Positions 1,919 through 57,979 of a stretch of DNA of 64,000 bases are shown here, piece after piece. How positions within the stretch are numbered: position 1 is the stretch's first letter; the number at the start of each line of letters is the position of its first letter. The notes below the pieces were generated by a model that was given only the letters and a program-made list of their open reading frames with translations, was not told the origin of the DNA and made no database searches. The translations under genes and the position numbers were made by a program. Source of the DNA: Styela clava (Eukaryota); contig NC_135250.1 in NCBI RefSeq assembly GCF_964204865.1, forward strand, positions 26,412,001 through 26,476,000, given 5' to 3'.

Positions 1919-3139
1919 ATATAATATTTTTGTATATTTTTAGAATAAAAATAAGTGGTTCAACACGGGGTTTTTGATGATATGATAACTCTCATTGCAC
2001 GATTTTATCAGTCTTAATCCTTACGTTGATACGTGATTTACAACACGTGATTACGTTCGCGGCAAGGTAGCAGGAAGGTAACGGTTAAAATGAGCCTTTT
2101 TGGTAATTCACTGTACATGACAGTCTTAGGTTTGATTATTTGGAATTTCGAAAGCCCGTCGATGCAGCTCAATTGCATAATTTCAACTTTAAAGTAAACG
2201 AAAAGTAGTGCTGGGCATTGTTAATTAATAATGAATGTTTAGTACTTTTCGATTATTGCGCAATCACTAATTTTTCAATACGTTTTTTATTCTGTTTATA
2301 TCTTTAAGTTAGATTAAAAAAGTTAAATATTAAGTTATTGTCCCACTATTCTCTGTTTATATTCGGTTAGATTACATCGAACTTCTCACAATCTAGCCTA
2401 AGATAGTGGTAAAACAACAACGGGATAGTATTGAAAGTTCTCAAGGATTCGGGTATTTTACTACTTTCCATATCTGCGACTATTCGTTCTGATTCACAGC
2501 CCTGTTATGACATAGAACAAGAACTAGATATACAAGGGAAAACATTTTCAAATATCAATAGTTTGCAGTTTTTTTAAATTTTGTTTTGGTTGGCGTATTG
2601 AATCATTTCAGAAAAGTATTCACAGTAGAGTATTACAAAATTTAAAAGTTCATTTTTACATGATAAATTAGTAGATACGTTGTGGTAAGGCATGATGACA
2701 GGTTAGATTCCTAATTGAGATTTTTGAATCGCAAAGATGAATCTAGCACAATTCTAGCTATGCGATTATTATCTTTCTATGAAGATGTAGTAAAATTAGT
2801 CGTGAAACAGTTTTAAATTTGGAGTAGCGCTTTTCCTGTCAGCCAAAACGGTCTAATGAGTTCCCTCCATATATTTTGAAAACAATTTATAATTGCAGTT
2901 CAATTTATGATTTTGATTGTCCGTGGCAACTATGAGATTTTATGATCAGATGGATTTTACATATTTTGTTATCTTTACAAAATCACGAAGAAGTTTCAGC
3001 AGAAAGCATTTTATGTGCTTCCATCCTTATTCTTATCTTATTGAAAAGCATATTTATTTTTCCATCGTAAAATGCATTATTATGCCGTAGTATATAGACG
3101 TTAATATGTTCCTACTAAGACATTTTGTGGAAATACAAT

Positions 3140-6100
3140 ATGGATTTACGAGCTTTGACAATATTGTTTTTTGCGATCACGCATATTTCTTCAGGTTAAG
3201 GTACGTGTCTTAGTTTAATTACTTTTTGTAACATAGGAATACTTCTACTACTTGATGGCAGATTTTGCAATAATTGTTGGTCAGTTCAAAAATACTGATC
3301 ATTCAAACAGATGAGCCGTCGCACAAACCAGAAACCATTATCCGAATTTAAACTACGTGTTGGGTTAAGTTCAAATTTTGATATCGAGTTGCAGAGCCAA
3401 CATTAAGTGTAATCACAATTCTTATTTTTTTTTTTAAATCCTAGATGTTTATACTGATGGTAGTTCCAATTATTAAAATTATAGAAAGAATTGTCTCACC
3501 TGCCATGGTGATATCGTGGATATTTCGGGTAATTTTCCAATATTTTTCATTGTTTTCTGTTCTTATAACGTCACTGAATAACTCAGGTTAATAAAATGTT
3601 AGTACTTGTGATGTAATTTTTATTTGCGCCCCAGAAGTATGTGTACCAATATAGAGGGAACTAATTTTGTTTGCCTACTTTACATCAAGTTGTGTAAAAG
3701 GACTGAAACCTATGGGCATGGGGTATATTCACTTGGCTAACACAGACAATACCGAACTCGTAATAGAACTAAAATAAGTAAAATCGAAACAAAATTACGA
3801 CCTAACCATAACCGAACTCGTAATAGAACTAAAATAAGTAAAATCGAAACAAAATTACGACCTAACCATAACCTGGTACACACACTATAAGAGTACCGTT
3901 TTCTTTAACATTTCAATTACAGTCGTTGGAATGGATAGTTTGGTTACACACATCGGAAAACCTAAAAAATATATTTGATAAGTTTTCTTTGACATTAGAA
4001 GATAGAGTGATTTCGAACATTTTAAACTCAGAATTGATTTCACAAAATGATTATAGATTGTAGCTGACCACAAGTCAAAGACATTACTGTGATGTACTTT
4101 GACCAGAGTAGGACCTAATCAGACTGTCGTAATCCAACTATCATAGCAAGGCAAAACAAATCATTATTTATCGTTCCAACAAAACCAAATGAATTGAAAG
4201 AGCGATTTGAACATCAGTCGCAAATAGCAAGATAACAATACTTCACAAACTTTCTTTGTTATTTTAATTCGTACGCGACAATTTCTACATATATGTTGTA
4301 ATTTTGCAAGTCACTTCCCCAATGATAGGCATAAATAAATAGATATTTTCTTGAACATTACTTCCTATTTATAGAACCGTGGAAAAGCGAATGTATTGAT
4401 GGATTCAAACTTCTATTTTTCCACGAAACGAAAAATTACACTGAAGCCAAATCAGCTTGTGAATCTGCGGGAAGTTATCTCGTCAAAGTTGATAATCAAA
4501 AAATAACTGACGTGATAAACGATGTACTCAAGTGAGTTGCATTCACCGTTTACGAGAACAAAACATTTTATTTTTATAGTCAATTAATTTTTCTCCTCAA
4601 TAGTGCTATTTTTCATGTATTTTGGACTAAATCGGATCGGTGGATATATTCCAAAATACCGATATATTTGCTATATAGGACACGTTTTCATTTTAACGTG
4701 AGGTAGTTTACATAGGATTTGAATGAGACAATATATGATAACGCACATGCAAAACATTGATAAGAATAAGCTTCACTGTTTTATGTGGATATATCCTGCC
4801 AATTATTCAGAAAACTTGTGCTCTCTTATAGGTATTGCAAGAGCTTCCAGGACATATATTTGATCTTCGTGCCTTGTTCACGTGTACGATGTTAATTCAA
4901 ATCATATTTAAATTCCAAGCTATAGTTGGTCAATTTGCGTTTACACTTATTTTTCGTGTGATAATTATTTTAATTTCAACCTATTCAGAAACAATCTATT
5001 GAGAGAACAATTTTTCATTGGAGGGAACGACATAGCCAAAGACGGAGACTGGAAATGGCAGGACGGGACTGACGTAATAATGAGAGGAGGAGAAGGATAT
5101 CAAAACTGGTTAGTTATTAATAGATTTTTTAGGATTTTCAAACTTTCATGACGAATAAAGGTAATGGAGAAAAAGAACATCTCATGTCAAAATATCAAAA
5201 ATTTCATAGCCAATTATTAGCAACCTTTTTGTGACTATGTGTAATTATTGTTTATTAAGCTTTTTGTTTATTTCTTCTTTTTTAATTCAGGAGGTCCGGA
5301 GAACCAAATAGTGGAGGAGAGGGAAATGAGGATTGTTTGGTTGTTGGTCTGGAAGGCAATGATTGGGTAGATTATACATGCGAAAGAAGACTTTATTTTA
5401 TATGTCAAAAAGATGATGAAATATATCAGATATTGTAGTTCCTTCATACAATTTTCAAATATGAAAAGTCACCTTTTTGGTTTAATAATTCTATCAAATA
5501 TATACACCGAGTGCCGTTGTAAAAATATCTAGTGAAAAATAAGATTTCAAATGCCATAAAAAATAGAATTTCATACAATAATCATTGTTGTTATTTTTAA
5601 GATATTTATATTGTCGTTATGCACGTGGTATAACTTTAATAAAATCTAATCTTTGATGTACAATATCATTAAAACAGAGTTCCAGGGTCCTTTTCTGGAA
5701 ATTCAAAGTACAGGTCAAACTCAGATGACTTGTACTAAGACCAAGTGTAACAAGGGTACTAATGTTGAATGGTATACGAGTTTCGTGATACCAACAGATC
5801 CTAGCAATCGTGTTTATCAAACAAAGCAATCTGGATCAGCAATATTACATCTACAAAACGCAGATATATCTTATGCAGGGAACTACTCCTGTTGGTCTTG
5901 GGTTAACGGTGTTAAAAAGGGAAGAAATAAAATTGAATATGAAGGTAACATTGATATAAAATTGTTGGCTGTTTATTCCCGTTTTAATTGAAACTGGCTG
6001 ATTGAGATCTCATATTCTAAAGCCCTATGCACGAGACTTGTTCCATCACTCGGCTACAGTAACGATCAGCCCATACACGCAAATTTGTAAACTAGGACAT

Positions 6101-7055
6101 TTAGTAATCCCGTTGTATAAGGACCAGGTTAGGATTAGGCAATAATTTTATTCCCATTTTCCTTGATTTAGTTCTATTACGAGTTCGGGGACTGTCTCTG
6201 TTAGCCAAGTGAATACACCCCCTGACTATAGGTTTCAGTTCCTTCACACATTCTAATGTAAAATATTCGAACAAAATTTGTTACCTCCATATTAGTACAC
6301 ATTTATACTACTGGAGCGCCTTCTAATTGTCACTATTAATTAGTCTAATATAAATAATGACGTATGGAACGGAAGAAAAATAAACACACAAAGCTCACGA
6401 CAAAGTAGTATCAAATCTTTTACAATACCGGCAGTCTTCTTTATCAAAAAACTTCCTACTTAGCTGACCACCAGATCTCTGATATACGATCGTGAAATCG
6501 GCGCATGGTGCGCACTCTTTAATTTTGATGACGAAATCACATAAAACTTAAAGGTGGAAAAAAAAATTACAGAGCTCACGGAATTTTAATAGTAATAAAA
6601 AGTAATCGCCTTACAGCAAAAACAACATTTATTAACCACTCCAAATTTTAAAGCAATTGATCGAGTGATAAAGGAGAATGACAATTTTGTCACAAAAATA
6701 GCGACAAAGAAAAGAAGAATACAAGCAACATCCAGAATTTTCACAAAAAAAGTCCATGGGTCAACTTTGTGCTCAATGTCCACGCAGAAATCACGAAATG
6801 CGACTCATATTTTACTTTTGATGTATTCTATATCTTTTCTATCACAGAAAAGATTGTCAATTCCAATTAACCTTCAGACATTAAGCTTTCATTCATTTTT
6901 CAAGTAGTGCATCTTCCTTTACATTCGCTAACCAACTACATTATTTTATCAGTTGAGGGAACTCCAACAATTAACCATATTCCGAATTACACGTGCAACT
7001 CCAGTTTATTAATCTCGTGGGAACCTCACAAAAATGCAGTTGGATTTCCTCACAA
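3140..7055 (+). pseudogene. Truncated long-form paralog (copy 1): SP, CTL, Ig and half FN3; pseudogene, or possibly a secreted CTL-only lectin
   Basis: Exons 3140-3200, 4375-4531, 4989-5108, 5291-5412, 5678-5944, 6953-7055 are homologous to copy 3. Lesions: CAA>TAA at 3197-3199 at the end of the signal-peptide exon; donor GT>AT at 5413 (read-through stop 5436-5438); all downstream exons removed by a breakpoint at ~7712. Confidence 0.8.
3625..3885. repeat. Related MITE subfamily copy with an internal perfect 60-bp tandem duplication (3751-3810 = 3811-3870)
   Basis: Direct reading. Related copies at ~16057-16242, ~6120-6320, ~19635-19847 and ~54919-55120. Confidence 0.7.
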
Positions 7056-8290
7056 GTGAGATTATTTTAATGGTCCAATACTTACTATCCTCGTTATTTA
7101 CATTTGATCCGAGTCAATTTTTGTGCTTTTTTTGGAGCAAAATATTTTGGGCTTTAGTTTCAGTATTTTAGTAGATTGTCATAATCAAAGTCGCGACTTG
7201 AGATTACCTAACAAAATTATATGAGAAAGCGATTGCGTATAAAATGATATACGGGATATTCTGATTTTTCCTCTTTTAATTTCGCTTTTAACCGTTATTT
7301 CTTATGAGCAATGTAAACATGAATATGCGTATTTTAGGATGCGTCATTGACGTTTTTTCATAGTTTGGTCAGGTAATATTGTTTTTGTTTGTAGTTTTAA
7401 GTGAATGTATAACATTCGAAATATGACTTGGGCTTCCGGGTAACGATGAAGTTGTCTAATCTGATACCTTTATTGTTGTGTCTTATTTTGCAACCTTTCA
7501 TATTAAAGGAATATATAGCAATTTAGCAAAGTTTCTTTTGTTAAAATTGAAAGCGTAAAAATTTATTAGAAAAAATATAGCAGCAGAGCTCAAGCATTCT
7601 TGCCGATACCTTTCGACTCGTATTAAAAGAGTTAGTCAAACTTAATGGTAAGTTTCACAAGGTTGAAAAATTTGTTTTTAAATAAGGGACACCCTAAAGC
7701 CGTAGAATAGCATTAGAAAAAAAAGCAATAGAATAGCAACTTATAGCAGAGGGGTCATGCAATTAACGATGCATAGGCTAGAAAGTCTCATCGTTTAAAT
7801 AAGTTGGTTGCCGCCGATCTAAGTATAATCTCAATTATCGTGACGCACTTGTTTTGCCGAAGGCTGCCTTTGATCAAAATGCCTTTGAATAGTAGTAGGA
7901 TTGTGAGCTAAATATCATGATTTTTCTTACTCAATTTTTTTTCAAATCGATAAAAAACTAAAGCTCTACCTACCTCTGGCTTTTCTAGCTTCAATTTCAT
8001 TTTCCAGGATGTGTTGTTCGATGATATCGCTTTCGCAAAATATGTGTCAAAAAATCATCACTGTCTTTCTTTGATTGTCCGCAAACAGAATTCAAAATAT
8101 TATCAAAAATTTAGATGTATATCTCAATATTAAGTATAATTTTTTATAAAATAGGTTTATCAAATACTCTGATATCGCATGGTGGTCGCAAGATGATTGC
8201 GTATGCGAGATGATTGCGTATTTATTACACTTCACCAATGGCATGATTGCGCACTCAAGACATGGTCTGTTATTCCTGGATTCGCAATTC

Positions 8291-8526
8291 GGTGCTCCCG
8301 AAGTATGCAAACCAAGATGACGGACATCGGAACGTAACATGGGTAACAGGTTAGGGTTGGGCGATAATTTTTTCTCAATTTTCCCTATTTTAGTCCTATT
8401 ATCAGTTTGAAGACTAGCCAAGAGCCTTCCGTATTATTTATACCTAAAATTATGGCCTAACCCTAACTCAGTACACATATTACATTCCGATGTCCGCCAT
8501 CTTGGTTCGCATACTTCGAGAGCCCC
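8291..8526. mobile_element. MITE with long TIRs containing CAAGATGGCGG and GGTTAGGGTT (reference copy of an abundant family)
   Basis: TIR ends GGTGCTCCCGAAGTATG / CATACTTCGAGAGCCCC. 8-bp TSD CGCAATTC at 8283-8290 and 8527-8534. Empty site TTCGCAATTCTATAC at ~31322. Confidence 0.85.
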
Positions 8527-9583
8527 CGCAATTCTATACAAATGCCGTAGCCATATTTAACTAAAGAATAAAGCGATTTATATTCGGTTTTTAGAATTTT
8601 ATGGAAAGGAAAGTTGGTGGAAAGTCGTTATAATCCTTCTAGTGTGGTCATTTTAAAAATTTACCATTATAGCACAAATTGATGACACGTATATTCTGAC
8701 TCCTGACTATCGATCCATGAGGAAATTATCCATGAAGAAATTGTTATTCCGATCTATTGACACTACTCAATATTCATTCGTTTATGCCTGATTCACGTTT
8801 AATAAAAGGTCGATTTGCAATAAAGTTAAGCGACAATAGCGTATACGCATTTCCCGGTATTCTTGCTAACATATTTTGTTGATTTAATAGTATATGTAAC
8901 TCATAGAGTGAACTGTAGGTGAATAGATGAAAACAAAAGAATTTAACTCAGATTCACAGCCGCAAATAATATGGCACATGGGTAGTCAGAATAGAGTCAC
9001 GAGTTAAATTAATTTGAAACGTGGATTCCGATTTGTCAGTTTTTGTTTTGGTTGGCATATTGAATCATTTAAGAAAAAGTATTCACAGTTGCACAGAGTA
9101 TTGCCAATTTGAAGAGTTGTTTAATTTTTCACATGATAAATTAGTAAACACGTTGTGGTAGGGCATGTGGGCGTCTGCTACTTCCCTTAAATGAATTGAT
9201 GACAGGTTAGACTATCAATTTAGATTTTAGAATCGCATAGATGCAACTTGCACACATCTCGTTGTACGATTATTACCTTGTTACGAAGATGTAGTTAGAT
9301 TAGAAGGGAAACATTTTTTAAATTTTTGAGTAGTGCTTTTTCTGTCAGTCAAAACGATCTAATGAGTTTCTCCACATATTTCGTAAACAATTTATAATCG
9401 CTGCTTAATCTACGATTTAGATGCTAGTGGCACCTATGGGATTTTAAAATTGAATATATATTGACTGCATTTTTTACATATTTTGTTACTCTTTTATGTG
9501 CTTCTATCCTTCTATCATACGCTACAATGCATTTATAAGTCGTTAGGAATATTTAAGATTGAAACTCTTTATCGGAATACAAG

Positions 9584-9644
9584 ATGAATTTAGGAGACTT
9601 GGCGATTTTGTTTTTTTCGATCACGCATATATCTATAGGTCTAG
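9584..9644 (+). pseudogene. Orphan signal-peptide exon of a short-type paralog (copy 2)
   Basis: MNLGDLAILFFSITHISIGL + G|GTACGT. The exon and flanks (7748-10555) closely match 30791-36776, but homology stops at ~10555 and no CTL exons follow. Confidence 0.75.
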
Positions 9645-10190
9645 GTACGTATATTTTTTTAATTACTTTTCTACTACTCAATGAAAATTTTGGCAAAAAT
9701 AGTCAGTTTAAAGATACTAATCGAACGGATGAGCCGTCGAACAAATATTTCGTCCGTGAATACCGAAAACCATTATTCGAATTTAAACTACGTGTTGGGT
9801 TAAGTTTATCTTTTAATATCGATTAGCAGAGGCAACATTCAGTGTAATCACATTTCTTGTTTGTTTTAAATCGTAAATTTTTATACTGGTGGTAGTTCCA
9901 ATTATTAAAATTAAAACAAAATAGTTTTACCTGTCATGGTGATATCGTGATTATTTCGAATAAGTTTTCAATATTTGTTTATTGTTTTCTGTTCTTATCA
10001 CTGAATAACGCAGGTTAAAAAATGTTCTTACTTTTGATATAATGTTTTTTTTTAGTTTTTTAAATGGATTGAATAATTGGTTACAATCATTTTCCAAAAA
10101 ACCCAAAAAATATACTGCATATACTTTTCTTGGCAATAAGAGATATTGTAGTGTAAAACCTTGCTGTGGTGGCATAAGTTTACAACAATC

Positions 10191-10309
10191 TTGTAAACTG
10201 CTTGTCTGAGGAACTCTGATTTCGGTCAGACGAAACGCAAGCAGTTTACAACAATCTTGTAAACTGCTCGTCTGAGGAAGTCTGATTTTGGTCAGACGAA
10301 ACGTTACAG
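10191..10309 (+). ncRNA. Tandem minimal type-I hammerhead ribozyme motifs (Penelope/retrozyme-like), 66-bp unit
   Basis: Unit 2: CTGAGGA(10272-10278)-A-GTCTGA-ttttgg-TCAGAC-GAAA-CG-TT^ACAG, with a perfect 6-bp stem II and the palindromic ACGT mini stem III. Unit 1 (core at 10206) has a 15-bp stem I (TTGTAAACTGCTTGT/GCAAGCAGTTTACAA) but lacks the cleavage triplet. Confidence 0.65.
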
Positions 10310-10559
10310 AAATATATTTGTGTTAGTGTGCAGCAGGACTCTTGAATTGTAATAGTTTAGCTTGAAAAATAGGTTAATTAAAGAATTCGTTGGGATTGCA
10401 AAAAATTAGTTTGGGAACGAGACTTATCATTTTCCACTTTTGTAACACTTTAAATACTCTCCATAAAATGTAAGTTTGACCCGCCAGTTTGAGTGGGCAA
10501 ATTTTCTGGCACCTGGTCTAAAAACCTTGCCCACCTCTGAGCTAGTAGTAGGCTTTTGA

Positions 10560-12620
10560 TATTTGATCTTCTTGACTGTGTATTTAAATTAAAACTTATT
10601 CGAATTAAATTATTAAATAACAATGTTAATTCAAATACTTGAATCATAACTTGCGTAAGCAGTCCTTTTAATTTCATCACCAATATGTACAGATCGGCTT
10701 GTACGTTAAAATTGTCATTTCTATCATATCCCTGTACTATAGCCACGATTGATATAAACTTAGTCAAAAACTAGCCTTCAGACCGTTGAATTAAAGTTGA
10801 TATGCTGCTCTTTTTCTAATTATAAATTGAATTGCTACATTCAACTGAATACAACGAATAGGTATTTTTTTGCTAGATTAGACATATGACTTAATATATT
10901 AAGATTGATTCGGTGCACACTACTGTTTGTTTGGTTACAATTCTTAGCAAATTTATGGATGCATATATTTTTCTAACACCAAGTAGAAGAATTACCATCT
11001 GATTGTACTCATCTAATTGTATCTCTTATTCAATAAGACTTATTGTACTTATTGTCTTTTTATGATTATTGCCTAATACAACTATATTAGCGTAACGCTG
11101 CTAGCTCTAACTATTCCAGTCATCTCACTATGTATGGAAAAACAATTACATCTACCTATCTTAGATAGACAGTATGTAGAGAGATGAGGTAGACAGCAAC
11201 TAACAAATCTAATAATAATCATTGATTTCAACCTTATTTTAGGCCCGTCTGAGCCTTTTTTACACCTATTATAAAAAGTTATTACTGTTTGTTCAAACAT
11301 GCCAATAAAACCAATTTCCCAGAAATGTAAAATCGGCGGCGTTCTTTATTTTTATTGTCCTTCTTGAAAGATTATATACCCTTTTATTTCGACTCAATAA
11401 CAATACCTTTTTTATCACCCTTCTTGAATAATTATACCCTTTATTATTTCTACCTAATAACATGATATATGATCATTTTATATGTGATGTAATATATCAA
11501 GACCTTAACCCCCAAAGTACCTTCACGCCAATATAAACGCCATCAAACTGCTTTCTACATCGTCTAACGTTGCATCTGATATTGTTAGACTAATGGCTTG
11601 TTTCCTAGAATAAACATTCAACACCCACCAGTGTCGGTGTTCCACAACTGTGACTTGCTCACTGTTTTGATATCAATACACCTACATGAAAAATCATTTG
11701 AACTCTGTATTGTGAATTAGCTACCTAAGACAGTATTTTGATATGGGTTGAATATAGAAACCAGATGATTCATCATTTACTTTAGATTAAATTAGTCTAA
11801 CAAGGTTCAATCCAATAAGTTTAGATTGTTATTGAGACTAACTGTTGCTAATCGAATCAAAATTCGATTGAAAAATATCATGTAGCCTGGCATGAAATTG
11901 ATTTTGTCAAATCAACCATAACTTAAGTCAACCCTATTTGGTACTCCCGAAGAATGTGAACCAAGATGGTGGACACCGGAAGTAGTATGTGTACCAGGTT
12001 AAGGTTAGGTCATGTGTGTTACTTTTAATACCATTAAGGTTGAGGTATATAACCTGAGGTACTATCCAGATTGATCAGCTATCTTGACTCATCAAAATAG
12101 ACAATATCTTAGTAAGTCGACCTCTTCCTTGTATCTTTGGCCCTCACTGTGTCAACTTTAGTGTTGAAACAAGTAATTGACCACGTTTAATTTCTCTGCG
12201 GATGTACATGACCAAAGAGTATGTTTTCAAAACACACTGTTTTGCAACAAACAATTTCCTTTACACTATCTTTATTTATTACATTGGTATCATTTATTCT
12301 TGAACATCGAAAGTTCCCTCTCGTACAAGAAGTTGTTTTGTGCCTTATTACTCCCAATTTTTTTTTTCCAACGAGTTCTTTATACAACTTTGGTATGGAT
12401 ATTCAGCATTAGAGACTTGGAATTAATCAGAATTTGGATTTAGTTTTAAGGCTCTACAACTACAAATAACTAAGATCACCGCGCTATTTTAAATTTTATA
12501 CGTCTTTTCTTAATCAAACTAATGTCACTTAAGCAAAATAAAAATAAAAGTGAATATCTCACTCAGGTCCTTAAATCACTATGCATCGTCGTTAAACACA
12601 AATAATCTGCAATATAACAG
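10560..12620 (-). pseudogene. Highly decayed intronless NACHT (NLR-like) coding relic
   Basis: Across shifting frames, motif-like pieces appear in NACHT order and plausible spacing: RCIVI*GPE* (12590-12561, Walker A lead-in), VILVICSCRAL (~12479-12447), LLVREGTFDV (~12333-12304, Walker B-like), NILFGHVHP (~12226-12200), QLLVST (~12180-12162, sensor-1-like), EIGFIGMFEQTVITF (~11320-11273), FFH..LELAAL (~11145-11092, winged-helix-like). Many stops. Confidence 0.4.
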
Positions 12621-15549
12621 AAAGAATCTGGGTAAAAATTGTATTTAACATTTCCATTTAATTATATTCATAATTAATTAAGCAACCACAAATTAAAACA
12701 ATATTGTGAATCTTTTCCACTCTTCTGTGATAGTCGAAACCATCTAGTATAAGTGTTGAAATTAGGAGGAGTCGTTGGTCGTTTACTAGAGCAATAAATT
12801 GAAATATATTGTGATGTTATATATATATAAACATATATACAGTATATGTATATATATGTCATATTAATAAAGTAAGGTTGTAGTTAAACTCAAAAACAAA
12901 TAATTGTAACCTTTTTAAATCTTTCTGTCATGGCAGAAATGATCTTATATAAATGTTCGAAATAAAGGCAACAACGTGGCCCTCTATTATTCATTACTAC
13001 ATCTAGTGAGTAAAATTTGAATTCATGTAGAGTCAAGACTACGTCAAATATTGAATCAATACAATTTGAATCTTCATTTTGACCTATTCTGAACTTTTTG
13101 TCGTTCTATTTTGATGATCCACGATTTGTTTGCTTTCTGTATATGGGAAAAAAATTATATTTTCACTTTTAATACATGGGGTCCAAATTGCTATGTGACT
13201 TTCAGTACATACTATTTAGGATTTATCATTAAAAATTCATATCAATCATTGGTCTGTGCTCCGTTTGACAAAATATCAATATAAGGTACACGGTATAGTT
13301 TTAAATATAGCAAATTATACAAGTAATTAGCAATATAATTAGCAAATATAGCATGTGAATACAAAATATTAGGTTAACGGCCATCATTGCCATGTTACTT
13401 GTTTTGCTATACCTAAGAAAATGTCGTTTCACTAAGTCGATTAACCAAAAATATATACTGCAATGTTAAACATATATTTATGTATCATAAAGATATCATA
13501 GGAAAAGACACGAAGTCACGTGAAAAGCATTACGGAATAAGAAAATACATATATTGAGATGATTTCCCCATCAAACAATAAATCTTTTTTTTTTTTCAAA
13601 AACTGATGAGAAGGACGTAACATATATTATATATATACATATAAAATCAGACTGATTTATCATCAAGTTTTATTTTAAACAGCACATTCATGCATTGCCA
13701 CAAGATAAAATGATTTGTCGGTCGGTCGATTAGTTTCTAAATCTTATTAAGCTTTTCTATGGCTCGTTATAACTCCGATACTGACAACTATTATGTATAT
13801 ACGAATATAATAACATTTTATGGTATTCTTATGTCCCTTAATGTCAAAAATTATGAACTACCAATCGCTATATAGCTGCTACACTTGTTATATCATTGAT
13901 ACGTAAATGCTACATTTAATATTTTCTAACGAGAATCTAATATTTGATCTCAAGGGCTTCAATCCAAAAATGCAAAACTTGAAAAAATATATTGGAACAA
14001 TGGGGAAAATATATATTTATAATTTTTAACCATTTCTAAGTCTTCATTAAAATACTACGACGAATATGTGACAAAACGTTTCTTCGCCCCCTTTGTCTTG
14101 AACCTCTCTATCCATCACAACTGAGATAAAAACGATAATTCCGCAAAGTGCAATATTTCATAATTAACTGGGGAATGAAGAGAAAAATTCTGCCTTCATA
14201 AGTCTTTAGTGAGCAGTAAAAGTGTAAATATGGAATCAATTGACAAAAATGTTGGTGTGTTTCGTTACAACTGTGCATTCCGTATTGCAGGTACAGTGAG
14301 CAAATTTTGAGGTCTGAAATCACAAATGCTCAACGAATCGTAATTTCAGCATCAAATAAATTAGGCGATAAATATTCGATTTTTAAAATTCTGATGAAAT
14401 AAAACTTGCTGGATAGTCGTTTTAATCCCAGATGGACAAGGTACAGTGGGCCAAAAAAATGGATAAGACATTTGCCGGATCGCGTGTAATGTTCTGTCAT
14501 TTTACTTGGCTAACTGATCAATTATTGCGTAAATAGATTTTCGTATATCTGCTAGTGTGATCATTTCATAAATCTACCATTTTAACACAAATTGATGACA
14601 CATATGTTCTGACTACCTGACTGCCAATCCGCGTTATCCTGGCGGAAATTGTTACTCCGATATATTTACACTACTAAATCTTTATTTGCCCATGCTTGAT
14701 TCGATTCTAATAAAACTTCGATTTGAAAAAAAAATAAGCGACAATAGCGTATACGCATTTTCCGGTGTACTTGGTAATACATTCTGTTCATTTAATAGTA
14801 TATGTAACCCAGAGAGTGAACTATATGTGAATAGGTGGAAATAAGAGAATTTAACTCAGATTTAAAGCTACAAATAATAAGGCGCATGGAACGTCAGAAA
14901 AGAGTCACAAGTTAAATAAATCAGGATTGTGAAATCAGATTTGTCAGTTTTTCTAAATTTTGTTTTGGTCGGTCTGATGATTCTTTTCAGCAAGGTATTC
15001 AAAGTTGGAGTATTAACAATTTTTAGAGTTTAATTTCACATGATAAATTAATGGACACATTGTGGTGGGGCATTTCTGCTGCTTTAAATGTATTGATAAC
15101 AGGTTAGACTCATAATTGAGATTTTTGAATCGCATAGATGAATTCAGCACAATCTCGCTCTGCGATTATTACCTTGCTAAGAAGATATAATCTTATTAGA
15201 CGGGAAACGGTTTTAAATCTTGCAGTATTGCTTATCATGTCAGTAAAACGGTCTAATGAGTTCTCTCCGTATATTTTGAAAACAATTTATGATCGTTGTT
15301 TAATTTAGGATTTACCGAACTATAAAATTTTATGATCAAACTCATTTTTGTACATATTCAGCTACCTTTGACAAAATCACAAAGATGACCACAGCAGAGA
15401 AGAGCATTGTATGTGTGCCTTCATCCTATCTTATCAAAAATCAAATTTATTTTTTGCTATGCTAAATGCATTATTAGGTCGTTGTAGATTGACGTTGATA
15501 TGTTCCTACTATGAACATTTAAGATAGAAACATTTTGTGGAAATACAAG

Positions 15550-28830: not shown

Positions 28831-29432
28831 TGTGGAAAAAGAATTTTCTTCGTAACTGATGTGTTAATCAATTTCAAAAGTTTAGTAAAAAAAAGTGGGC
28901 CTTTGACCTCCTTGTCCATAAATGTGAAAATTGTACATTTCGTTCATGTATTACAAGCACTTGCTCTCTAACCACAATGGTTGTGATAGTAAATAGACTA
29001 CATCCAGACTCATCAAAAAAAAATCTACGAGATCTCTAAAAACGTTGCCCTCATCTAAATCCAACCGATGCGGAAATAATATCATTTATTTTTTCAATAT
29101 AAATGCTCATATAAATTATTTATTTATATTTAAATAAATATAGTTTTCAGGTCAAGAAGGCAAAAATAAAACAATTAAAATCGAAGTCGAAACGATGAAA
29201 GAGAAAAAAATTTAAATTTACAAATAAAGATTTACATAGCAATGTAATAAGATAAAAACCTATTTTTTCAGCACAATTTTTATGCCGCATTGTCTGCTTA
29301 TTTAATTAACGCAATAATCACTTCGACAGTATATCGAGCAGTATCGCATTTAGGACAAATTGCAGTTTGAGTGTTGTTTATAGACTTATGTAATATAAAC
29401 AAAAACAGTTGATTTCATCCGATCTCCTATAT

Positions 29433-29750
29433 CAGAAGTGGGCAAGGTTTTTAAACCAGAGGCCAAAAATTTTAACCACTCAGACTGGAGGGCCATGTAA
29501 GTGTGACGTAAAAAGTTACATTTTATGAACAATATGTACAGTGTTACAATGCAAAGGTGGAAAACAATAAGCCTCGTGCCAAAACTGAATTTAACCACAA
29601 TCACAACAAATTACTATTACAAATTACTGAGCTATTTTAGCTGAAACATCAAAATTTGATTTCAGTTTGGTTGTGGCAGCATCAGGCGGGCCAGATTAAA
29701 TTACCCAACGGGCAGGATTTGGCCCGCGGGCCGTACTTTGCCCGTGCCTG
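29433..29750. mobile_element. Old hAT-type MITE
   Basis: Ends CAGAAGTGGGCAA / TTGCCCGTGCCTG with GGCCCGCGGGCC subterminal motifs. TSD degenerate. Confidence 0.55.
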
Positions 29751-35640: not shown

Positions 35641-36422
35641 GCTAGTGGCATCTATGGGATTTTAAAATTGAATATATATTGACTGCATTTTTTACATATT
35701 TTGTTACTCTTGAAGTGCATTTTATGTGCTTCTATCCTTCTATTCTTCTATCCTACGCTACAATGCATTCATAAGTCGTTAGGAATATTTAAGATTGAAA
35801 CTCTTTATCGGAATACAAGATGAATTTAGAAGATTTGGCGATTTTGTTTTTTGCGATCATGCATATATCTACAGGTCAAGGTACGTATATTATTTTAGTT
35901 ACCTTTCTACTACTCAATGAAAATTTTGGCAAAAATAGTCAGTTTAAAGATACTAATCGAACGGATGAGCCGTCGAACAAATATTTCGTCCGTGAATACC
36001 GAAAACCATTATTCGAATTTAAACTACGTGTTGGATTAAGTTTATCTTTTAATATCGATTAGCAGAGGCAACATTAAGTGTAATCACATTTCTTGTTTGT
36101 TTTAAATCGTAAATTTTTATACTGGTGGTAGTTCCAATTATTAAAATTAAAACAAAATAATTTTACCTGTCATGGTGATATCGTGATTATTTCGAATAAG
36201 TTTTCAATATTTGTTTATTGTTTTCTGTTCTTATCACTACATAACGCAAGTTAAAAAATGTTCTTACTTTTGATCTAATGTTTTTTTTAGTTTTTTAAAT
36301 GGAATGAATAATTTGGTTACAATCATTTTCCAAAAAACCCAAAAAATATACTGCATATACTTTCGTTGGCAATAAGAGATATGGCGAAAACCTTGCTGTG
36401 GTGGCATAAGTTTACAACAATC

Positions 36423-36527
36423 TTGTAAACTGCTTGTCTGAGGAACTCTGAGTTCGGTCAGACGAAACGCAAGCAGTTTACAACAATCTTGTAAACTGCT
36501 TGTCTGAGGAAGTCACGGAACGTTACA
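36423..36527 (+). ncRNA. Paralogous tandem hammerhead motif pair in intron 1 of copy 4 (second unit damaged)
   Basis: Same 66-bp repeat, with CTGAGGA cores at 36438 and 36504. Unit 2 has lost stem II (CTGAGGAAGTCACGGAACGTTACAG). Confidence 0.5.
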
Positions 36528-39500
36528 GAAATATATTTGTGTTAGTGTGCAGCAGGACTCTTGAATTGTAATAGTTTAGCTTGGAAAATAGGTTAATTAA
36601 AGAATTCGTTAGGATTGCAAAAAAATTAGTTTGGGAACGAGACTTATTGTTTTCAACTCTTGCTTTTGTAACACTTTAAATACTCTCCATAAAATGTAAC
36701 TTTGACTCGCCAGTTTGAGTGGACAAATTTTCTGGCACTTGGTCTAAAAACCTTGCCCACCTCTGAGCGAGTAGGCTGGGCAGTATTAAATTATCATTCG
36801 CGACGGGTTAATTGAAGATCTCAATTTCGAGCACCGTCATTTTCATAATATCCCTTGAAAATGTTAAGCAAAACAAAACTCAATCTTTTTTAATGCTCAT
36901 TAATAATGAGTATAAAATTAGTTGGGGCTGGACAAATAAACACCATTGGATATCACACTTTAGAGTAAATATCAACAATACTTGTTTTTAGTTAGTTGCT
37001 TTTGAGATTCATATTATAACTTGTTGAACACAATTTGTTGTGCTTTTTCTCAGTTCCATGGAAAACAAAATGCGTAGACCAGTATGAGCTGACTTTTTTC
37101 AATGACACCAAAAAAGATTACAAAGAAGCAAAAGCGGTTTGTGAATCAATGGGAGGATTCCTGGCAAAAGTTGATAATCAACGAATGACTGACGAAATTA
37201 ATGCAACTTTCAAGTGAGTAGATCTCTATGTGGTATTTGAATATAAAAGAGTCAAAAGTCAAAAAATAATGAAGATGATTGATTTATTAAACGTCTGTAA
37301 TCTTTTGTAAACCTTCATAAGTGAATAATTGTCATACAATCATTTTAAATGTCCCAATTTTCAATAGAATTTGCATTTAAGAATCCACAATACCGAGCAA
37401 TTATTCAATAACTATTTTTTTCTAGAATGCGCGCAGACAGATACAAATAGAATCATAATCAATCCAAATTGTTTCAAAAATCCTGAAAAATTAAAAAATC
37501 CTGATACTGATGTGATAATGAGAGGAGAAGCGGGATATCAAAACTGGTTAGTGATTAATCGTTTTGTGCAAGCTTGAAAATTTATTTTTATTTTTACTCT
37601 ATCTTCTACATGATTGAAATCCTATGAAACAAGTTAATTTATTACAAATTTAGTTATTTTAGTTGATGATATCATACATTTTATGCGTTAACGCGCAGCT
37701 AATTAAATTTAGCAATGAGTGAATTATTATAGCTCCAAATAATCTATATCTATTGTCAAAATGAAATACTTAATTTTATTTTATTACTGCATGCGCAATT
37801 GTACGTTTTTAGTTCCGAATTTGATCTTTAAAAAGTGAGGACCAAAACAAATCTCTTAAATTTTAATTGGCCTAAAAATTCTAGTTAATATTGTTCTAAA
37901 TATCTGTAGGAATTAGCAAAAAATAAATTACGAAGCAACTACAAACGAATATTTAGGAATTTACAAATATATAGAAAAGGTTTCTACGTCATATTCCATC
38001 TTTCGCAATAATTACAAACATTCACACTCCTTAAAAACAATTGAATTAAAGCGAAAAAAAACTTTAATTGGTTGATATTTAGTATCTTAAAATTAAGAAG
38101 CAATATCATATTATATTATATAAATGCAATATAATCTAACAATTATAAAATATGTGAACGAAACTGATCTTTTATTGATGCGAGGTAAAAACCAACACAC
38201 ATTATCTAAATTAAGCTTATTCCGTTGCAGGAAATCTAACCAACCAAACAGTTATGGTGGTGAAGAAGATAGTATGTTGGTAGGAAGACATACATACCAA
38301 TGGATGGACTCAAGTTGTAACGAGGAAATTTACTACATTTGCCAGAAAAGTAAGATGATCATCCAAACAGTGTTTAGAATTAAATTTTTGAATGAAACAC
38401 TCATGGGAGTATATGATCTCTTTTCCTAGTTTTGGTCCTTACTGCATGAATCAATCTATAATAATTACTTGCAATACGGACGGTTCGATAAACTGAACAA
38501 AACTGTATCGCAGAATCTTACGATTCCGTTGAATGGTTAAAGGAGAAACAAGAGTATTGATAACTAGTAACATTAGTGTGTATCAATTAACAGTGTCAGC
38601 ATCGTTGTATTTGAACAACTCTTACAGAACAGATTCTTGAAATTACAGTTGCAATTATGAAGTGAATTTTAATTGCAAAGTTGGAAAAATATTCGAATTT
38701 CGGTGATATTAGTTTGACTAAGACGAGAAGAGTAAAATTTGAAAAAGGGGCGGTGACCTTGGTTATTTGTAGTTAAATACAAAACTGAATGGATTTTTAA
38801 TAATGAATATCCACACCAAAGTTGTATGAATGACTTATTGTAACTGAATGTTAATATTGTCTATGTTGTAACTTTTACTTCATACTTACAAGGCCCGCTA
38901 GTCTGAATGGGCAAATTTTTTGGCCCCCGCTACAAAAACCTTGCCTATCTCTGATCTAGACCCATGCTAGAAATTATTCAAATAATGATATAGATAATGG
39001 AATCTAATTAATTGTTTCTCAGATTAAGGTTTTATTTAATATCGATAACTAAAATTGTAATTTTTTATTTCTTGTCTTCTACTAACAGAAAAAATTCAGT
39101 ATTTTACTAGCAATTTATCAATATTATTAGCCTGTTAAAGTTGAGGTTGATATTACTGAATAATTTGTAGCTACTGCTAATAATGTTAAATGTGAATAAC
39201 GTTAGAAACCTTATTCAATAATCTATTATACTACACTTCATGCACACGTAAAATCATGGATGCATTGTTTAATAATATTTTTTTTTTATTAATTTCAATT
39301 GTGGCAACTGTACTTTTTATGGTACCCTGAAAAATAATAATAAAGTGATATGGGATATTTAAACCCTATAATTACTTATTTACTATTAATTAGTGATGTG
39401 TAGGTAGTATTTGAATAAACCTATATTTTACGGTAGTGTCTTTTTATAAGGTAAAACATGTTTTTATTAGGAACTGTAACTAATCTCAACTGTCATTGAA

Positions 39501-46344: not shown

Positions 46345-48810
46345 GTAAGTTGAATATATAACTATACCTCACCTATAATGAGATCAAATTACGTTCGATT
46401 GACGTTTTAATTATTGATATATTCTCATATATTTGCATAAGAATGTATATTTTAATTTGAACTAAATTTAATGAGTTTTTAGGATTTTTATCAATAAATA
46501 CAAATTATTATAAAAAGACGAAAGCTTTTAAAACTCTACGTTTTAATATTACAGCAAATCAAATAACCTCTGCAACTCAAGCTTACTAAAATTATGAAAG
46601 CCTCATGTCGAAGCATTTAGATTTCCTCACAAGTATTTTTAATTTTAACTAAACTTTACAAGATTTTAAATAACATTGCTGGTAGCATATATTGTATTGT
46701 ATTTTGAGCAGGATTGATGTAACCACCCTATCTGAAGAGACGAATAAAGAAATTTGAATTAACCCATTGCCTGAGAAGGAACAATCAACTGCAATTCATG
46801 ACTTGGCACTGTGCTGAATATAAAGTAAAAGTGAGGAATTCATATACTTGACCTCAAACAACCAATTGTTTTGATCAAATGCTTTTAATTTGCAAGGAAA
46901 AAAACTAGACTTAAAATGAAAATAGTTGACATGCATGCTGCCTATGCAAAAATGTTGATTTATTTTTATTAAATCATCACATTTTAATCAAATCAAAGTT
47001 TTGAATATTGATGCCAGTTGGAAAATCTTACAAACTTTAAAATCATTTTAAGTTTGAATTAGATAAAAATTAAACCTAAAAATCATATTAAATACATCGA
47101 TTATTTAGATAACAGCATGTTGGACTGAGTCTGAATGTAAATCTAATTCATCTGTCAGCAAAAAGTAGGTCCTGCAAGTAAAAACAATAATTCAACCGCT
47201 GATTAACAATCAAACTTTGTCACAAATTAACAATCAAACTTTGTCTCAAGAGGATCCATAAAGATCAAGTATAATGTAGCCCTCAAGATGAATCAATCAT
47301 GTGATCTGAAATATATTTTATAATAATATTTTATAATTTGCTGCATTTTATATTTGCGTCCGAAACAAATGTCTTACCTATGTCTGGTATATTTTCATAA
47401 TTGTGATCGATGGTTTACCTATGAAACAACCTAATATAAATTATACTCAGTTATTTCAAGAAATTGTGCTGAAAAAATAGGTTTCTATTTCATCCGTGTA
47501 TATGTATTTCTTTATTTGTATCCAAATTTGTTTCCCTTTCATCCTTGATTTTACAGAAATTTTTGTTAGTTTTATTTTTGCCTTCAGGTTCTGACAACTA
47601 TATTTATTTAGATATAAATAAATAACCAATATGAGTATTTATATTGGAAAAAATGAAATTATTTCCGCATCGGTTCGATTTAGATAAGGGCATTGTTTTT
47701 AGAGAACTATCATATTGTTCTATATCTCTAAAAACTAACAAATACACATTACATATACATATAGACCTACATTACATATAAAATTACTTTTCGTCAAAAG
47801 TATTTCGACAATAATTCTCTCTTTTGCATTCAAATCTAAAACTTAAAATAGTTTCTTGAAAAAAGTAATGGCTAAACTAGATTTTTCATCATTCTACATA
47901 TTCCAAACAAGTTAGATTGGTGCAGAATGTCTTTAATCAAATGAATAGGGAAATTATTTGATTCCAATTGCTCGTTTAGTACGTCACCTCTAAGCTCGAA
48001 TATAACTATCAGGAAATTATTCCAGCCAATGATTTCCGCCAATTTTCAAAAGTAAATTAATAAATTCATTCAATAAATATAAGACCGAAAGTACTTCATC
48101 GACCATGTAATAGATATAACTTTACCAATGACCTAAAATTTTGCATTTTTGTAAATGAATTTGACCAAAAATCACATCCACCCTAAGTGGACAGTATATG
48201 ATCAAAATATCTTTGGCCCAAAATCAGTAAAACTTGTTTTACACTGCACTAGAAATAACTAAGAAAAACACAAGAATTATTATGGGAAGTTTGATGAATT
48301 GTTCTTGATGTTGTTGATATTGTTAAATCATTTCAAGCAGTCAGTAGTTAAAACAAGGTATTTCGTTGAAAAATATTAAAAAAATTAAAAGATTTTTTTT
48401 TATTTTTGGGGCTTCCGTGTTTAAACTTGTTCCCCCAAATTGACGACGACTCGTCTATTTGTTGCTGCAAAATTTGGCCATTTGTCGACTAACTGTTGTC
48501 ATTATGTTATGTTTAGATCGCGCATATATTTCAGTACAGTTTGTTACTTCATGTTCAAATAAATATTTATTCCTCAGAAACCAATCGGCATATTGATCAA
48601 TTATATTAAATGATTAACAATATATATTATGATGACGTGCTTTGTTACGTCCAAAATAGGTTAAAATTCCGCTTATATAGTTGACTCCATCTTCCTTATC
48701 ACGGCTAGTCCGGTAATAAAATTAAAATTATTTTTACGATACAAATAGACGATCAGGCTTTTAATGCAAAGTTAAAAATTGGCTGTGAGTTCTTGTGTGA
48801 TAATACTCAA

Positions 48811-51800
48811 TCAAGCCCTGTAATTTTCGTAGAAGGTTTCCTTGTTGGCTTGAACACTTGTTGAAGGAAGTGGATGTTCATAACCAGCCATTTCTTCTAA
48901 TACATTTTCGTATGTCGTTCCGGCAGTTTGATGGGTGGAAGTGGTTGCTGAAGATTAATAACATTCTACTAGGGATGGACACTTCAAATATAATATTCGA
49001 ATCGATTCGAATAGTAGATTATTCGAATCGTTTCAGAGCAGAATTTTGAATCGTTGCCATCTTTTTCTTACTTTCCGCCAATGGTGGAGTTCAATTACCA
49101 ATTTTTTATTGTATACATATTTTCTCAATGCCATTCGGACATATGAATTTATGTAGTGAGCGTTTTTTATACTTTGTGAACGCTCCGCAGTTGATCTTAG
49201 GTATGTATTTCATGTTTTCAGTAATTCATTTGTTGTCAGGACCAATTACAATAAAAAAGTCTCATACATTTACATATCTCCCATTGACTCTCAAGTATAC
49301 GAAATTCGATTTGATTCGAAAATAATATTCGATTCGATTCTGAAATCACCAGGTATCCGAAATGCCCAGCTCTACATTCTACTAATACTATAAGCAGAAA
49401 AGTGTGACTTTATACTTGTGTCAGGGTATTAGGTTACTTTGACTATTTGTAGTACTTTTAATACATTGAGTTGTACAATTATAATTCATGCGCAAACAAG
49501 CATGTTGTTTTACAATTGAATCTAAAAATTCAATGAAGGTATTTTGTATTTTGATTGTTCTTTGTTGGTCGAATAACTGTTCAAAGAGCTATTTCAGCTA
49601 GTTTCTGTTTTTTTTTTAGCATTGATATCAACACTGATTGTTCAACTCCGTTGCGTTACGATGGTGTTACAGTTCGTGATAAGCATGCAAACTGCAATTT
49701 TTTAATGTACATTTATATTTTCGATTAATTAGGCAGTTAAAAACCAAGCCCAACACTGCTCATAATTATTGAATAGTGTAATTACAATTTTACCTTGATC
49801 CGATATGGTTTCGTAGTTATGAATTTTTATGGCTTCGTTTTGTTCCATTTCCTCTATCTTGAGCTTAAGTTTACGTATGATCCATCCAGTGATTCCGAGG
49901 AACAACAGAGGGATAATGAAACCAATCACAAAACTCGGGAAGTTGAAAGTAAAAGATTTCTTTTCTGAACAAAAATTCAAATTTAAGCTTTCGAATAAAT
50001 TCAAAATATAACTTTTATTATCTAATCATCTATATTAATCGGAAAATAAATAGGTTATTTCTAGCTATTTGTGATAGAGTTTGTCTAACTCAAGCCTGAC
50101 TTGATCGAATATTGTAATACAAAATGACTTTTACTCCATCGACGATTAAATGACTAATAATTGCGAAAAATATTATTAATTTAACTATAACTGACGACTA
50201 TGAATTCACCTTTTCCCAACGTTATCCGCAAACTTCTTTTGAAGTAAATCTCTTTTTCGGATGGTGTTGCAGAAACGATCGAAATGCTAGAATAAAAGTT
50301 AATAACTTTTACGAAATAGTATTATCATATTTTTGTTATTTTTACATGAAATTCCATAAGTACTGCAAATATTGTATTGGCATGCTATTTGAACATTAAA
50401 TAGATTTTCCAGTAGAAAGTAATTTCATAGTATACAAACATATTGGACATATTTTTTTAAAGTTTTCCTCATTTTAAACAAGTTCGATACAAGACACTAA
50501 CCGAGTCAAGTAATCTGACTGAAACATCGCCTTCATCAATTATACAAAATTATTGTAATATTATTTACATGTTTTTCCATAAAACATATGGGCATCAAAT
50601 TAAGTTATTTCTGCTTTCACAAAGTCCTTTAATCATATTAAAATCACAATTAATATAATACTGCAATTATGGCTTGAATTGCGTAAAATATATACATGGG
50701 TTAAGGAAAAATTTGCGATTCTTTTGATCTTAACGCAGAAAAATGAAGCTATCAAATAACTTATAAATATCGCAAGATTTTGCGGATCGATTGTGTCGAA
50801 ATATAGATTTATTGTAGACGAAAAATGATTCGGATCTTGGGATAAAATGGCAACACAGACAAAATCAAGTCAAATAATATATATTAAACCCAGAACCTGG
50901 GGAAATTTTCTTTATTTAACTTCCGATTTGTCCCGATGAATAAAAAGTCGGTTTCCATAGCCACATCTGACGCTTCAAATCCTGCGATGTCACATTGAGT
51001 TACTGACTCGTCTCCGAGTGTAACGTTTACAGTCTTTTTTTTTATGCTAAAATATAATTATATAATATTTACCCTGACACCCTGTGATACCCTTTGCCGA
51101 TATCAAATTGAAATTATTCATCGAAAAGCATAAATAACTCAGGTAAGCAAAATGGTGGACTATCATGTGGCAATATTTTTGCATTAAATTTACTTCGCAA
51201 CTTGATTTGCCATGGCAATGTATTTTTTCCCATCCGCTGTGCTGTTGAAAGTAATCAAATCATCCATTGTAAATTCAGTGCTTGTTTCAAAACCGTCCTT
51301 GTCAACAAGTACGAATATGCAACTGCAAAGCAAAGTGTATCAATCCTAATTTGTCTATCATACTTAAACCCCAAGTTAGAGATTTGCTTTCATATGTCGA
51401 AATTAACCAATTATATTTGACACTTTATTGTCGTCTATCACATGATCCGGAACTTCAAAATTCAGGAACTCTTAGAAAATCAAATATTTCGGTCAAAATG
51501 GCTGATTGAGATAGTTTGGTTAGTGAACAATATGTGATAACATCTGTAATGCGCTGTCCTTACAAAAGATCATTGATTAAAATAATTGAGCAGACAAAAC
51601 AGACTGTGTTGTACATGTTCATTGTGTTGTACCAATTCTATATTAACGAATAAAAAGCTTAGACCTATGAAACCCAATATTTCAACCAAAGCCTTGCTAT
51701 TTAATTTTGATTTATTGGAAAATTTTCTTTTTTCTGAACCTGCCATGCGTGTACGCCATTTTTTTTTTCAGCAAAATCGATACTCTCAGATCTTATCGTT

Positions 51801-57800: not shown

Positions 57801-57979
57801 CGAATGATCAATATTTTTCATCCAATAGACAATTTTTGCAAAATTTGCCTTCAAGTAGTAGAAGTATTCCGAAGTTATCAGTGTTACACAAAGTAATTGA
57901 ATAAAGTTAGACGCTTACCTTGACCTGAAGAAATATGCGTAATCGCGAAAAACAAAATTGTCAAAGCTGGTAAATTCAT
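48811..57979 (-). CDS. Type-I membrane receptor, long form (copy 6), inverted paralog of copy 3; 15 exons, 703 aa
   Basis: Exons (high-low): 57979-57919, 56951-56795, 56286-56167, 56016-55895, 55561-55301, 54409-54307, 53723-53606, 53169-52981, 52529-52322, 51984-51876, 51322-51194, 51046-50897, 50286-50210, 49964-49794, 48947-48811. Sum 2112 nt, open frame, same intron positions and phases as copy 3. CTL has EPN..ENC..WVD. Tail NYETI/TTYENV/GYEHP/FYENY. Confidence 0.85.
48970..49374. mobile_element. hAT MITE in the last intron of copy 6
   Basis: Ends TAGGGATGGACA / TGCCCAGCTCTA, subterminal (TTCGA)n repeats, perfect 8-bp TSD CATTCTAC at 48962-48969 and 49375-49382. Confidence 0.85.

Follow-up and report, generated by a model that had tools for sequence, protein, structure and literature searches.

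The window, a stretch of 64,000 nucleotides of the Styela clava genome, contains a short tandem repeat within a cluster encoding C-type lectin and Ig receptors. The question raised by this locus is whether the tandem represents a pair of hammerhead ribozymes, forming a very small retrozyme-like insert that could cut the pre-mRNA of a lectin gene, as the original prediction proposed, or has another origin. The evidence presented below makes it very probable that the insert is a short, 5′-truncated and locally inverted copy of the pseudo-LTR (pLTR) of a Penelope-like element (PLE), with the hammerhead as a likely decaying passenger that does not cut host RNA.

Anatomy of the tandem and its hammerhead motif

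Tandem Repeats Finder delineated a 66-bp tandem at 10177–10303 (1.9 copies, 95% matches), with CUGAGGA cores beginning at 10206 in unit 1 and at 10272 in unit 2, in agreement with the predicted repeat and core. The interval originally assigned to it (10177..10309) encloses the tandem but falls short of the full insert, which runs on to 10349 and measures 173 bp (10177–10349). A minimal type-I hammerhead motif was located at 10268..10309 on the forward strand, and its anatomy agrees with the min-HHR as described in PMC4209133. Stem I pairs 10268–10271 with 10306–10309 and includes a C-A mismatch at the third pair, C3 is at 10272, an extra A follows A9, and stem II (10280–10297) is composed of 6 bp. 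Downstream of it are GAAA, the palindrome ACGU at 10301–10304 without a loop, and a GUU site ending with U17 at 10305; the cut is predicted after U10305. For unit 2, the proposed anatomy, i.e., a minimal type-I hammerhead of the PLE kind with palindromic stem III and this cut position, was therefore borne out. All the core boxes (CUGANGA and GAAA) and the NUH-type site are present in unit 2, which keeps every core nucleotide, as are the unpaired base before G10.1, the G10.1-C11.1 pair and the long stem II; its positions 15.2–16.2 are palindromic, without a stable stem III in the monomer.

The set of boxes and site is incomplete in unit 1 and in unit 2 of the paralogous insert described below. 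Unit 1 reads GAAACG followed directly by CAAG and has no U16.1-H17 cleavage site, and a C at position 10.1 (10214) results in C10.1-C11.1 in place of the G-C pair. Positions are given in hammerhead numbering, and the G10.1-C11.1 pair is important for activity; it was found to be G-C in 20 of the 21 motifs aligned, all except unit 1. The tandem therefore does not hold the two hammerheads originally envisaged. The proposed 15-bp stem I was also rejected, as the 15-bp helix (10191–10205 with 10237–10251) surrounds the site-less unit 1 and has a probability of 0.002. Across the family, stem I at the GUU site has 4 bp (UUGU/ACAG, seen in 48 of the 65 cores of the census described below), a length that fits the 4–5 bp of min-HHRs, whereas unit 2 shows two contiguous pairs, then C-A, then U-G, resulting from T>C at 10269; the same UCGU strand was seen in 1 of the 65 other cores. 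Taking UUA as the site instead was discarded on sequence grounds, since the first pair of stem I would then be U facing C. H17 is U in the family of the insert and C in a second family of the same genome.

The hammerhead motif is not a chance occurrence. The min-HHR descriptor matched once in the window and in none of 100 shuffles, the strict hammerhead pattern gave 314 genome matches compared to 0 in the control, and the loose pattern gave 1030 compared to 13. A scan with hammerhead models had been suggested originally; the descriptor result supports the motif, but the Rfam scan of the window yielded 0 matches at gathering score, and at E ≤ 10 the region 9800–10700 gave 10 weak matches, none of them to a hammerhead family. 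The motif stands despite the Rfam result, being established by the genome counts and the PLE context. Compensatory changes among the genomic copies, which the prediction had also pointed to, were observed. In an alignment of 21 motifs from two families of this one genome, with rows hand-picked to be distinct, 88.5% of 252 cells were paired as compared to 72.9% after shuffling, and 6 of 12 pairs changed on both sides; nearly all these two-sided changes separate the two families, which makes the count about one event per pair, and the register of stem II across the families depends on the alignment.

Origin of the insert from a Penelope-like element family

A genome search with the locus, in which 40 of 1638 candidates were scored, returned dispersed copies, many of them as head-to-head pairs, and the sequence common to them extends from about 10257 to 10349. 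Over 93 nt, the window piece was 98.9% identical to a 588-bp non-autonomous unit, which occurs in tandem and inverted arrays, and 92.5% identical to pLTRs flanking intact RT and GIY-YIG frames. Judged by these identities, the insert is a PLE pLTR nearest to a non-autonomous subfamily, with the 588-bp unit as its closest relative. The search for an adjacent Penelope RT, proposed originally, was successful, as the pLTR family flanks RT and GIY-YIG frames. Two cores 3943 bp apart flank a broken RT and GIY-YIG region, and a protein search of the genome gave 151 matches, several of them in open frames of 940–977 aa. At loci L092, L093, L096, and L097, a frame of 940 to 977 aa is placed between hammerheads in direct repeat. 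The architecture is that of a single frame with RT followed by a C-terminal GIY-YIG; the 960-aa frame of L092 (Pfam RVT_1, E = 1.5e-9; GIY-YIG, E = 4.1e-5) contains the CX4CX2C linker CNRKACTTC between RT and EN as well as the CCHH residues. The hammerhead repeat together with the ORF start matches the opening 336 nt of the 588-bp unit at 82% identity. An ORF-bearing member of exactly the subfamily of the insert was not found among 30 loci of the 151 protein matches.

The frame resembles those of Neptune/Nematis-type EN+ PLEs (PMC8557442, PMC3846280) in the single RT and C-terminal GIY-YIG frame, the CX4CX2C linker and the CCHH residues, and a Zn-finger-like CX2-5CxxC linker between RT and EN is described as a Neptune/Nematis feature (PMC8557442). 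By its linker and domain order, the element is a candidate member of one of these clades. At least three related PLE subfamilies with frames of 940–977 aa flanked by hammerhead repeats were observed (L092:2417-5296, L093, L096, and L097; G000 C6, C18, C8, and C5), and the near-identical copies of these frame-bearing subfamilies suggest recent activity. The second minimal-hammerhead family (L114–L124) has UGCC/GGCA as stem I and a GUC site, and it adjoins GIY-YIG fragments from another Penelope-like group (L120, L122). Pieces of a further retroelement-like frame with a zinc-binding C-terminal region are present near family copies (L057:804-1316, L058:6442-8535), and a 387-aa lysine/threonine-rich repetitive open frame directly follows a Penelope-like RT fragment (L095:7435-8595).

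The whole insertion (10177..10349, forward strand) could be decomposed into pLTR pieces only, namely, four pieces and two single C junction bases, with three substitutions in total relative to the family; by these identities, its composition from PLE pLTR is considered established. With leader positions counted from C3 of the hammerhead core, the order is inverted leader (-19 to -7), C, forward piece (-15 to GAAACG), inverted leader (-19 to -2), C, and forward piece (-15 to +44). The inverted pieces, at 10177..10189 and 10238..10255 on the reverse strand, are reverse complements of the leader with 0 mismatches to the family. The first forward piece (10191..10237, forward strand) comprises the leader and a core ending before the U16.1-H17 site, with G10.1>C at 10214. 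The second (10257..10349, forward strand) comprises the leader, the complete minimal core and 44 nt of pLTR past the cleavage site, with the T>C at 10269 as its one mismatch, and its 3′ end falls within the commonest 3′-end cluster of the family. Both units share the same CAATC/TTGTAAA junction. The alternative hairpin of the original prediction, GCAGTTTACAA/TTGTAAACTGC, does form, with computed pair probabilities of ∼0.99, and its 5′ arm is the second inverted piece. As the insert splits into inverted and forward pLTR pieces, the hairpin is the inverted 5′ pLTR leader at a head-to-head inversion junction and not a part of a ribozyme. The proposal that it acts as a switch was not sustained, since such an inverted leader is found upstream of 10 of the 65 cores sampled elsewhere in the genome.

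Copy ends were recorded for 65 cores from 60 loci (L134–L193), which are 60 of 100 listed strict-match places on contigs 1–4, a sample that leaves out the window itself and most known places, including the long arrays and ORF-adjacent copies. The 5′ ends were located 13–24 nt upstream of the core in 26 cores (18 of them at 18–21 nt), <13 nt in 17 and at least 60 nt in 12; some of the 17 belong to sister subfamilies with other leaders. The 3′ ends were located 40–60 nt past the cleavage site in 30 of the 65 cores and 155–175 nt past it in 10. The family was found to include 5′-truncated, tandem and inverted insertions with preferred 3′ ends, and the window copy (-15/-19, +44, inverted) is a typical short form of it. 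The sister subfamilies carry a pyrimidine run and AG at about -17, where the subfamily of the insert has TG, and TAGTT near -17 in these subfamilies is presumably initiator-like. The clustered 5′ ends may represent the RNA 5′ end or a splice acceptor.

This is in agreement with reports on the PLE class, in which head-to-head inversions with palindromic junctions, 5′ truncation and a tail are described as standard (PMC8557442, PMC3846280). Neptune/Nematis-type insertions are likewise described with partial tandems, inverted 5′-truncated copies with a palindromic junction and two preferred 3′ ends. They differ in having a 30–40-bp tail, whereas the 3′-end clusters are ∼115 nt apart here; a target-site duplication, variable in the EN+ class, was not evident at the insert. 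The Poseidon element of Anolis (PAc) is comparable in its pLTR hammerhead, clustered internal ends and AT-rich flanks, and its reverse transcription was reported to start internally on uncleaved RNA (PMC11167929). The copies in both cases extend across the cleavage site, which would make uncleaved RNA the template. PAc, however, belongs to a different clade and its ORF starts inside the ribozyme, whereas the first Met of the 960-aa frame is roughly 230 nt downstream of the core.

We infer that the insert arose by internal priming with fold-back, underwent one duplication and is inactive. In the order of events proposed for the tandem, the element protein would have nicked AT-rich DNA, and reverse transcription would have begun inside the RNA, ∼44 nt past the ribozyme. 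The uncleaved RNA would have been copied through the ribozyme to 15–19 nt upstream of the core, where a fold-back or template switch would have generated the inverted arm. A second switch in the course of insertion, or later 66-bp slippage, could have doubled the block. The region would then have been duplicated (10177 and 36409), with damaging changes acquired by each copy. The native motif would serve to process the RNA of the element itself, in a dimer-dependent and probably protein-assisted manner.

The two head-to-tail units, with a CUGAGGA core in each, could also be read as a mini-retrozyme of 66–69 nt replicating as a tiny circle. Non-LTR retrozymes resemble the tandem in having a type-I hammerhead in tandem repeats (PMC7229834; bioRxiv 10.64898/2026.07.22.740005) and were proposed to derive from PLE pLTRs (bioRxiv 10.64898/2026.07.22.740005), and tandem arrays with periods of 588, 360, and ∼1890 bp do exist in the family. 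However, a single cleavage site makes monomer release impossible, and retrozymes are defined by two or more units in a row, with a complete hammerhead in each (bioRxiv 10.64898/2026.07.22.740005), whereas unit 1 is site-less. The reported monomers of 150–450 bp (PMC7229834) far exceed the period of 66, the motif is minimal and not canonical, and there are only about two copies. Of the 1638 candidates, 40 were scored, and in these the full tandem occurred nowhere but here and at the segmental paralog; the unit is explained by the inversion junction. A mini-retrozyme is hence regarded as extremely improbable, and the idea of a very small retrozyme-like insert was set aside in favor of the truncated pLTR copy. 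The 588-bp and 360-bp units of the family resemble non-autonomous PLE derivatives. The units at L023 (588 bp), L055 (360 bp), L054 (∼1890 bp), and L056 (two cores 120 bp apart) are non-autonomous with a complete minimal hammerhead each and are better retrozyme candidates than the 66-bp unit.

The host lectin cluster and the paralogous insert

Tandem and inverted segmental duplications of a C-type lectin and Ig receptor gene, with 70–95% identity, occupy 2562–30000 and 47000–59000 of the window. Among the five copies of the signal-peptide exon (3505, 9936, 15943, 36172, and 57582 on the minus strand), the 3505 copy alone is open and in phase; the other four show TGA at codon 5 along with further frame or donor changes. 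The exon upstream of the insert (9936..10013, forward strand) is such a broken signal-peptide exon of a lectin-Ig receptor paralog, being 78 nt long, phase 0, and frameshifted, as compared to 82 nt and phase 1 in the open paralog. The predicted location in intron 1 holds insofar as an exon is present upstream, but with its TGA codon and its phase the term applies only loosely. It was correctly foreseen that the host copy survives only as exon 1; it is a 5′ remnant, and between exon 9936 and 16736 no lectin exon similarity was found that could represent downstream exons of its own. Broken signal exons were also observed where the downstream lectin and Ig exons look intact (16736 onward; 56952 onward, minus strand). 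No GT donor is left in the copy at 15943, and the donor at 9936 could in principle splice to 16736.

Directly after the insert is an older dispersed repeat (10352..10545, strand unassigned; ∼70–77% identity to other copies). The repeat is also present at 29424–29612 and 38837–38959, with 1053 first-look candidates in the genome, and its terminal motif looks like the end of a DNA-transposon MITE, which may be hAT-like. At 3751–3873, a perfect 60-bp tandem duplication was seen inside a very abundant short repeat in an intron. An empty site was sought among the paralogs and none was found, the other paralogs being without the whole neighboring block.

Contigs from four sequencing runs, three of them presumed to be RNA, were compared with 2000–12700 only; neither cleavage ends nor circles are visible in such contigs. 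In one contig from a presumed RNA run, four downstream exons are joined, belonging to the copy at 3505–7055 or a close paralog. The exon at 9936 was covered by none of the listed contigs, to which no evidential weight is given. The cover on 10211–10567, with loose ends at 10257 and 10347–10349, corresponds to family copies elsewhere and is therefore uninformative on this locus. DNA contigs spanning the tandem were not found among those listed.

A paralogous copy of the tandem insert was identified at 36409..36568 (forward strand) in a duplicated lectin gene. Its unit 1 carries the same G10.1>C, and its unit 2 has lost stem II through a 13-nt deletion, along with GAAA>GGAA. The same tandem at 10177 and 36409 implies that it predates the duplication, and an assembly artifact is unlikely because the two loci carry the tandem with different changes. 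Both the hammerhead units and the host exon are hence visibly damaged. The two inserts differ by 3 substitutions in 160 positions as compared to 20/572 and 10/199 in the flanks; these counts are too small to be read as constraint, and the changes hit the motif. Neither is the lower divergence a positive proof of neutral decay, despite the 13-nt deletion removing stem II.

The placement downstream of the signal-peptide exon in two lectin paralogs, with the insert of the 36172 copy lying before the lectin exon at 37056, could suggest an exapted regulatory switch like that of mammalian Clec2, with the hairpin gating cleavage. The likeness consists of a hammerhead core within a C-type lectin locus. 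The Clec2 hammerhead of mammals, however, is described as discontinuous (bipartite), located in the 3′ UTR and cleaving in vitro (PMC6765202), whereas the present motif is a contiguous piece of a high-copy transposon, downstream of a broken first exon and 5′ of the lectin exons. The insert is absent at this position from the other three paralogs, including the only one with an open signal exon, both copies are damaged, and hairpins of this type are seen again at unrelated loci. An intronic landing calls for no special cause when at least 314 copies are dispersed in the genome. The analogy with Clec2 drawn originally was hence not upheld, and such a switch is considered exceedingly unlikely as compared to a passenger pLTR copy.

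Probable lack of cleavage and significance of the family

The monomer cannot close stem III. The only option in cis is unit 1 as enzyme and unit 2 as substrate. A chimeric ribozyme of this kind, with the unit 1 enzyme strand acting on the unit 2 GUU site through a 3-bp stem III and a 4-bp stem I, would cut read-through RNA or pre-mRNA, perhaps with the help of the element protein. On paper, the two units can pair in this way (unit 1 UUGU with unit 2 ACAG, ACG with CGU), and the insert lies in the sense orientation relative to the lectin cluster. PLE hammerheads are considered to work as dimers (PMC4209133; PMC6765202), and one is reported to be protein-assisted (PMC11167929). Against this, C10.1-C11.1 of unit 1 replaces the otherwise conserved G-C pair, the constrained ensemble is 16.1 kcal/mol above the free one with stem I pairs at a probability of <1e-5, stem II of unit 2 is lost in the paralog, and the host exon is already broken. 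Chimeric cleavage in cis is hence considered very unlikely.

Two-molecule forms of the window fragments cost 17.2, 18.2, and 21.0 kcal/mol, and those with native family leaders cost 14.4 and 8.6 kcal/mol. Overall, the active folds of the window are computed to lie 16–21 kcal/mol above the best fold, a direction that fits inactivity; this is weak evidence because the native family motifs are also disfavored. Dimer cleavage of small PLE hammerheads is the subject of a paper by Lunse et al. For min-HHRs, no cleavage as monomers and low cleavage as dimers are reported (PMC4209133), and one PLE hammerhead needed the protein of its element and was dispensable for insertion in vitro (PMC11167929). 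With all its core nucleotides kept, unit 2 may retain residual cleavage in trans with another family RNA. Cutting of the lectin pre-mRNA by the insert appears unlikely.

The features of the window motif match those listed for the min-HHR of metazoan PLE pLTRs by Cervera and de la Pena (2014; PMC4209133), with the differences that H17 is U in the family and that in the window copy two units are scrambled, one of them without a site. Hence, the locus represents a minimal PLE hammerhead of an already known kind in a truncated, inverted insertion, and it is probably inactive. The family may already appear in the supplementary motif alignments of that work.

It is scarcely credible that the accidental tandem is a working cis double hammerhead switched on by the element protein, such that host lectin pre-mRNA is cut by active PLEs, which may have contributed to silencing the paralogs. 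If this were true, the dispersed pLTR stubs would be protein-inducible RNA cut sites across the transcriptome, and a stub cutting host RNA with the element protein would amount to a new route by which a transposon affects host transcripts. On the preferred reading of a truncated pLTR copy, the locus itself matters little, being one of hundreds of pLTR stubs of an active-looking PLE family. The family, with its intact frames, 588-bp non-autonomous unit and sharply clustered ends, is a natural record of how reverse transcription starts and ends, and it is useful for asking why PLEs keep a barely cleaving ribozyme.
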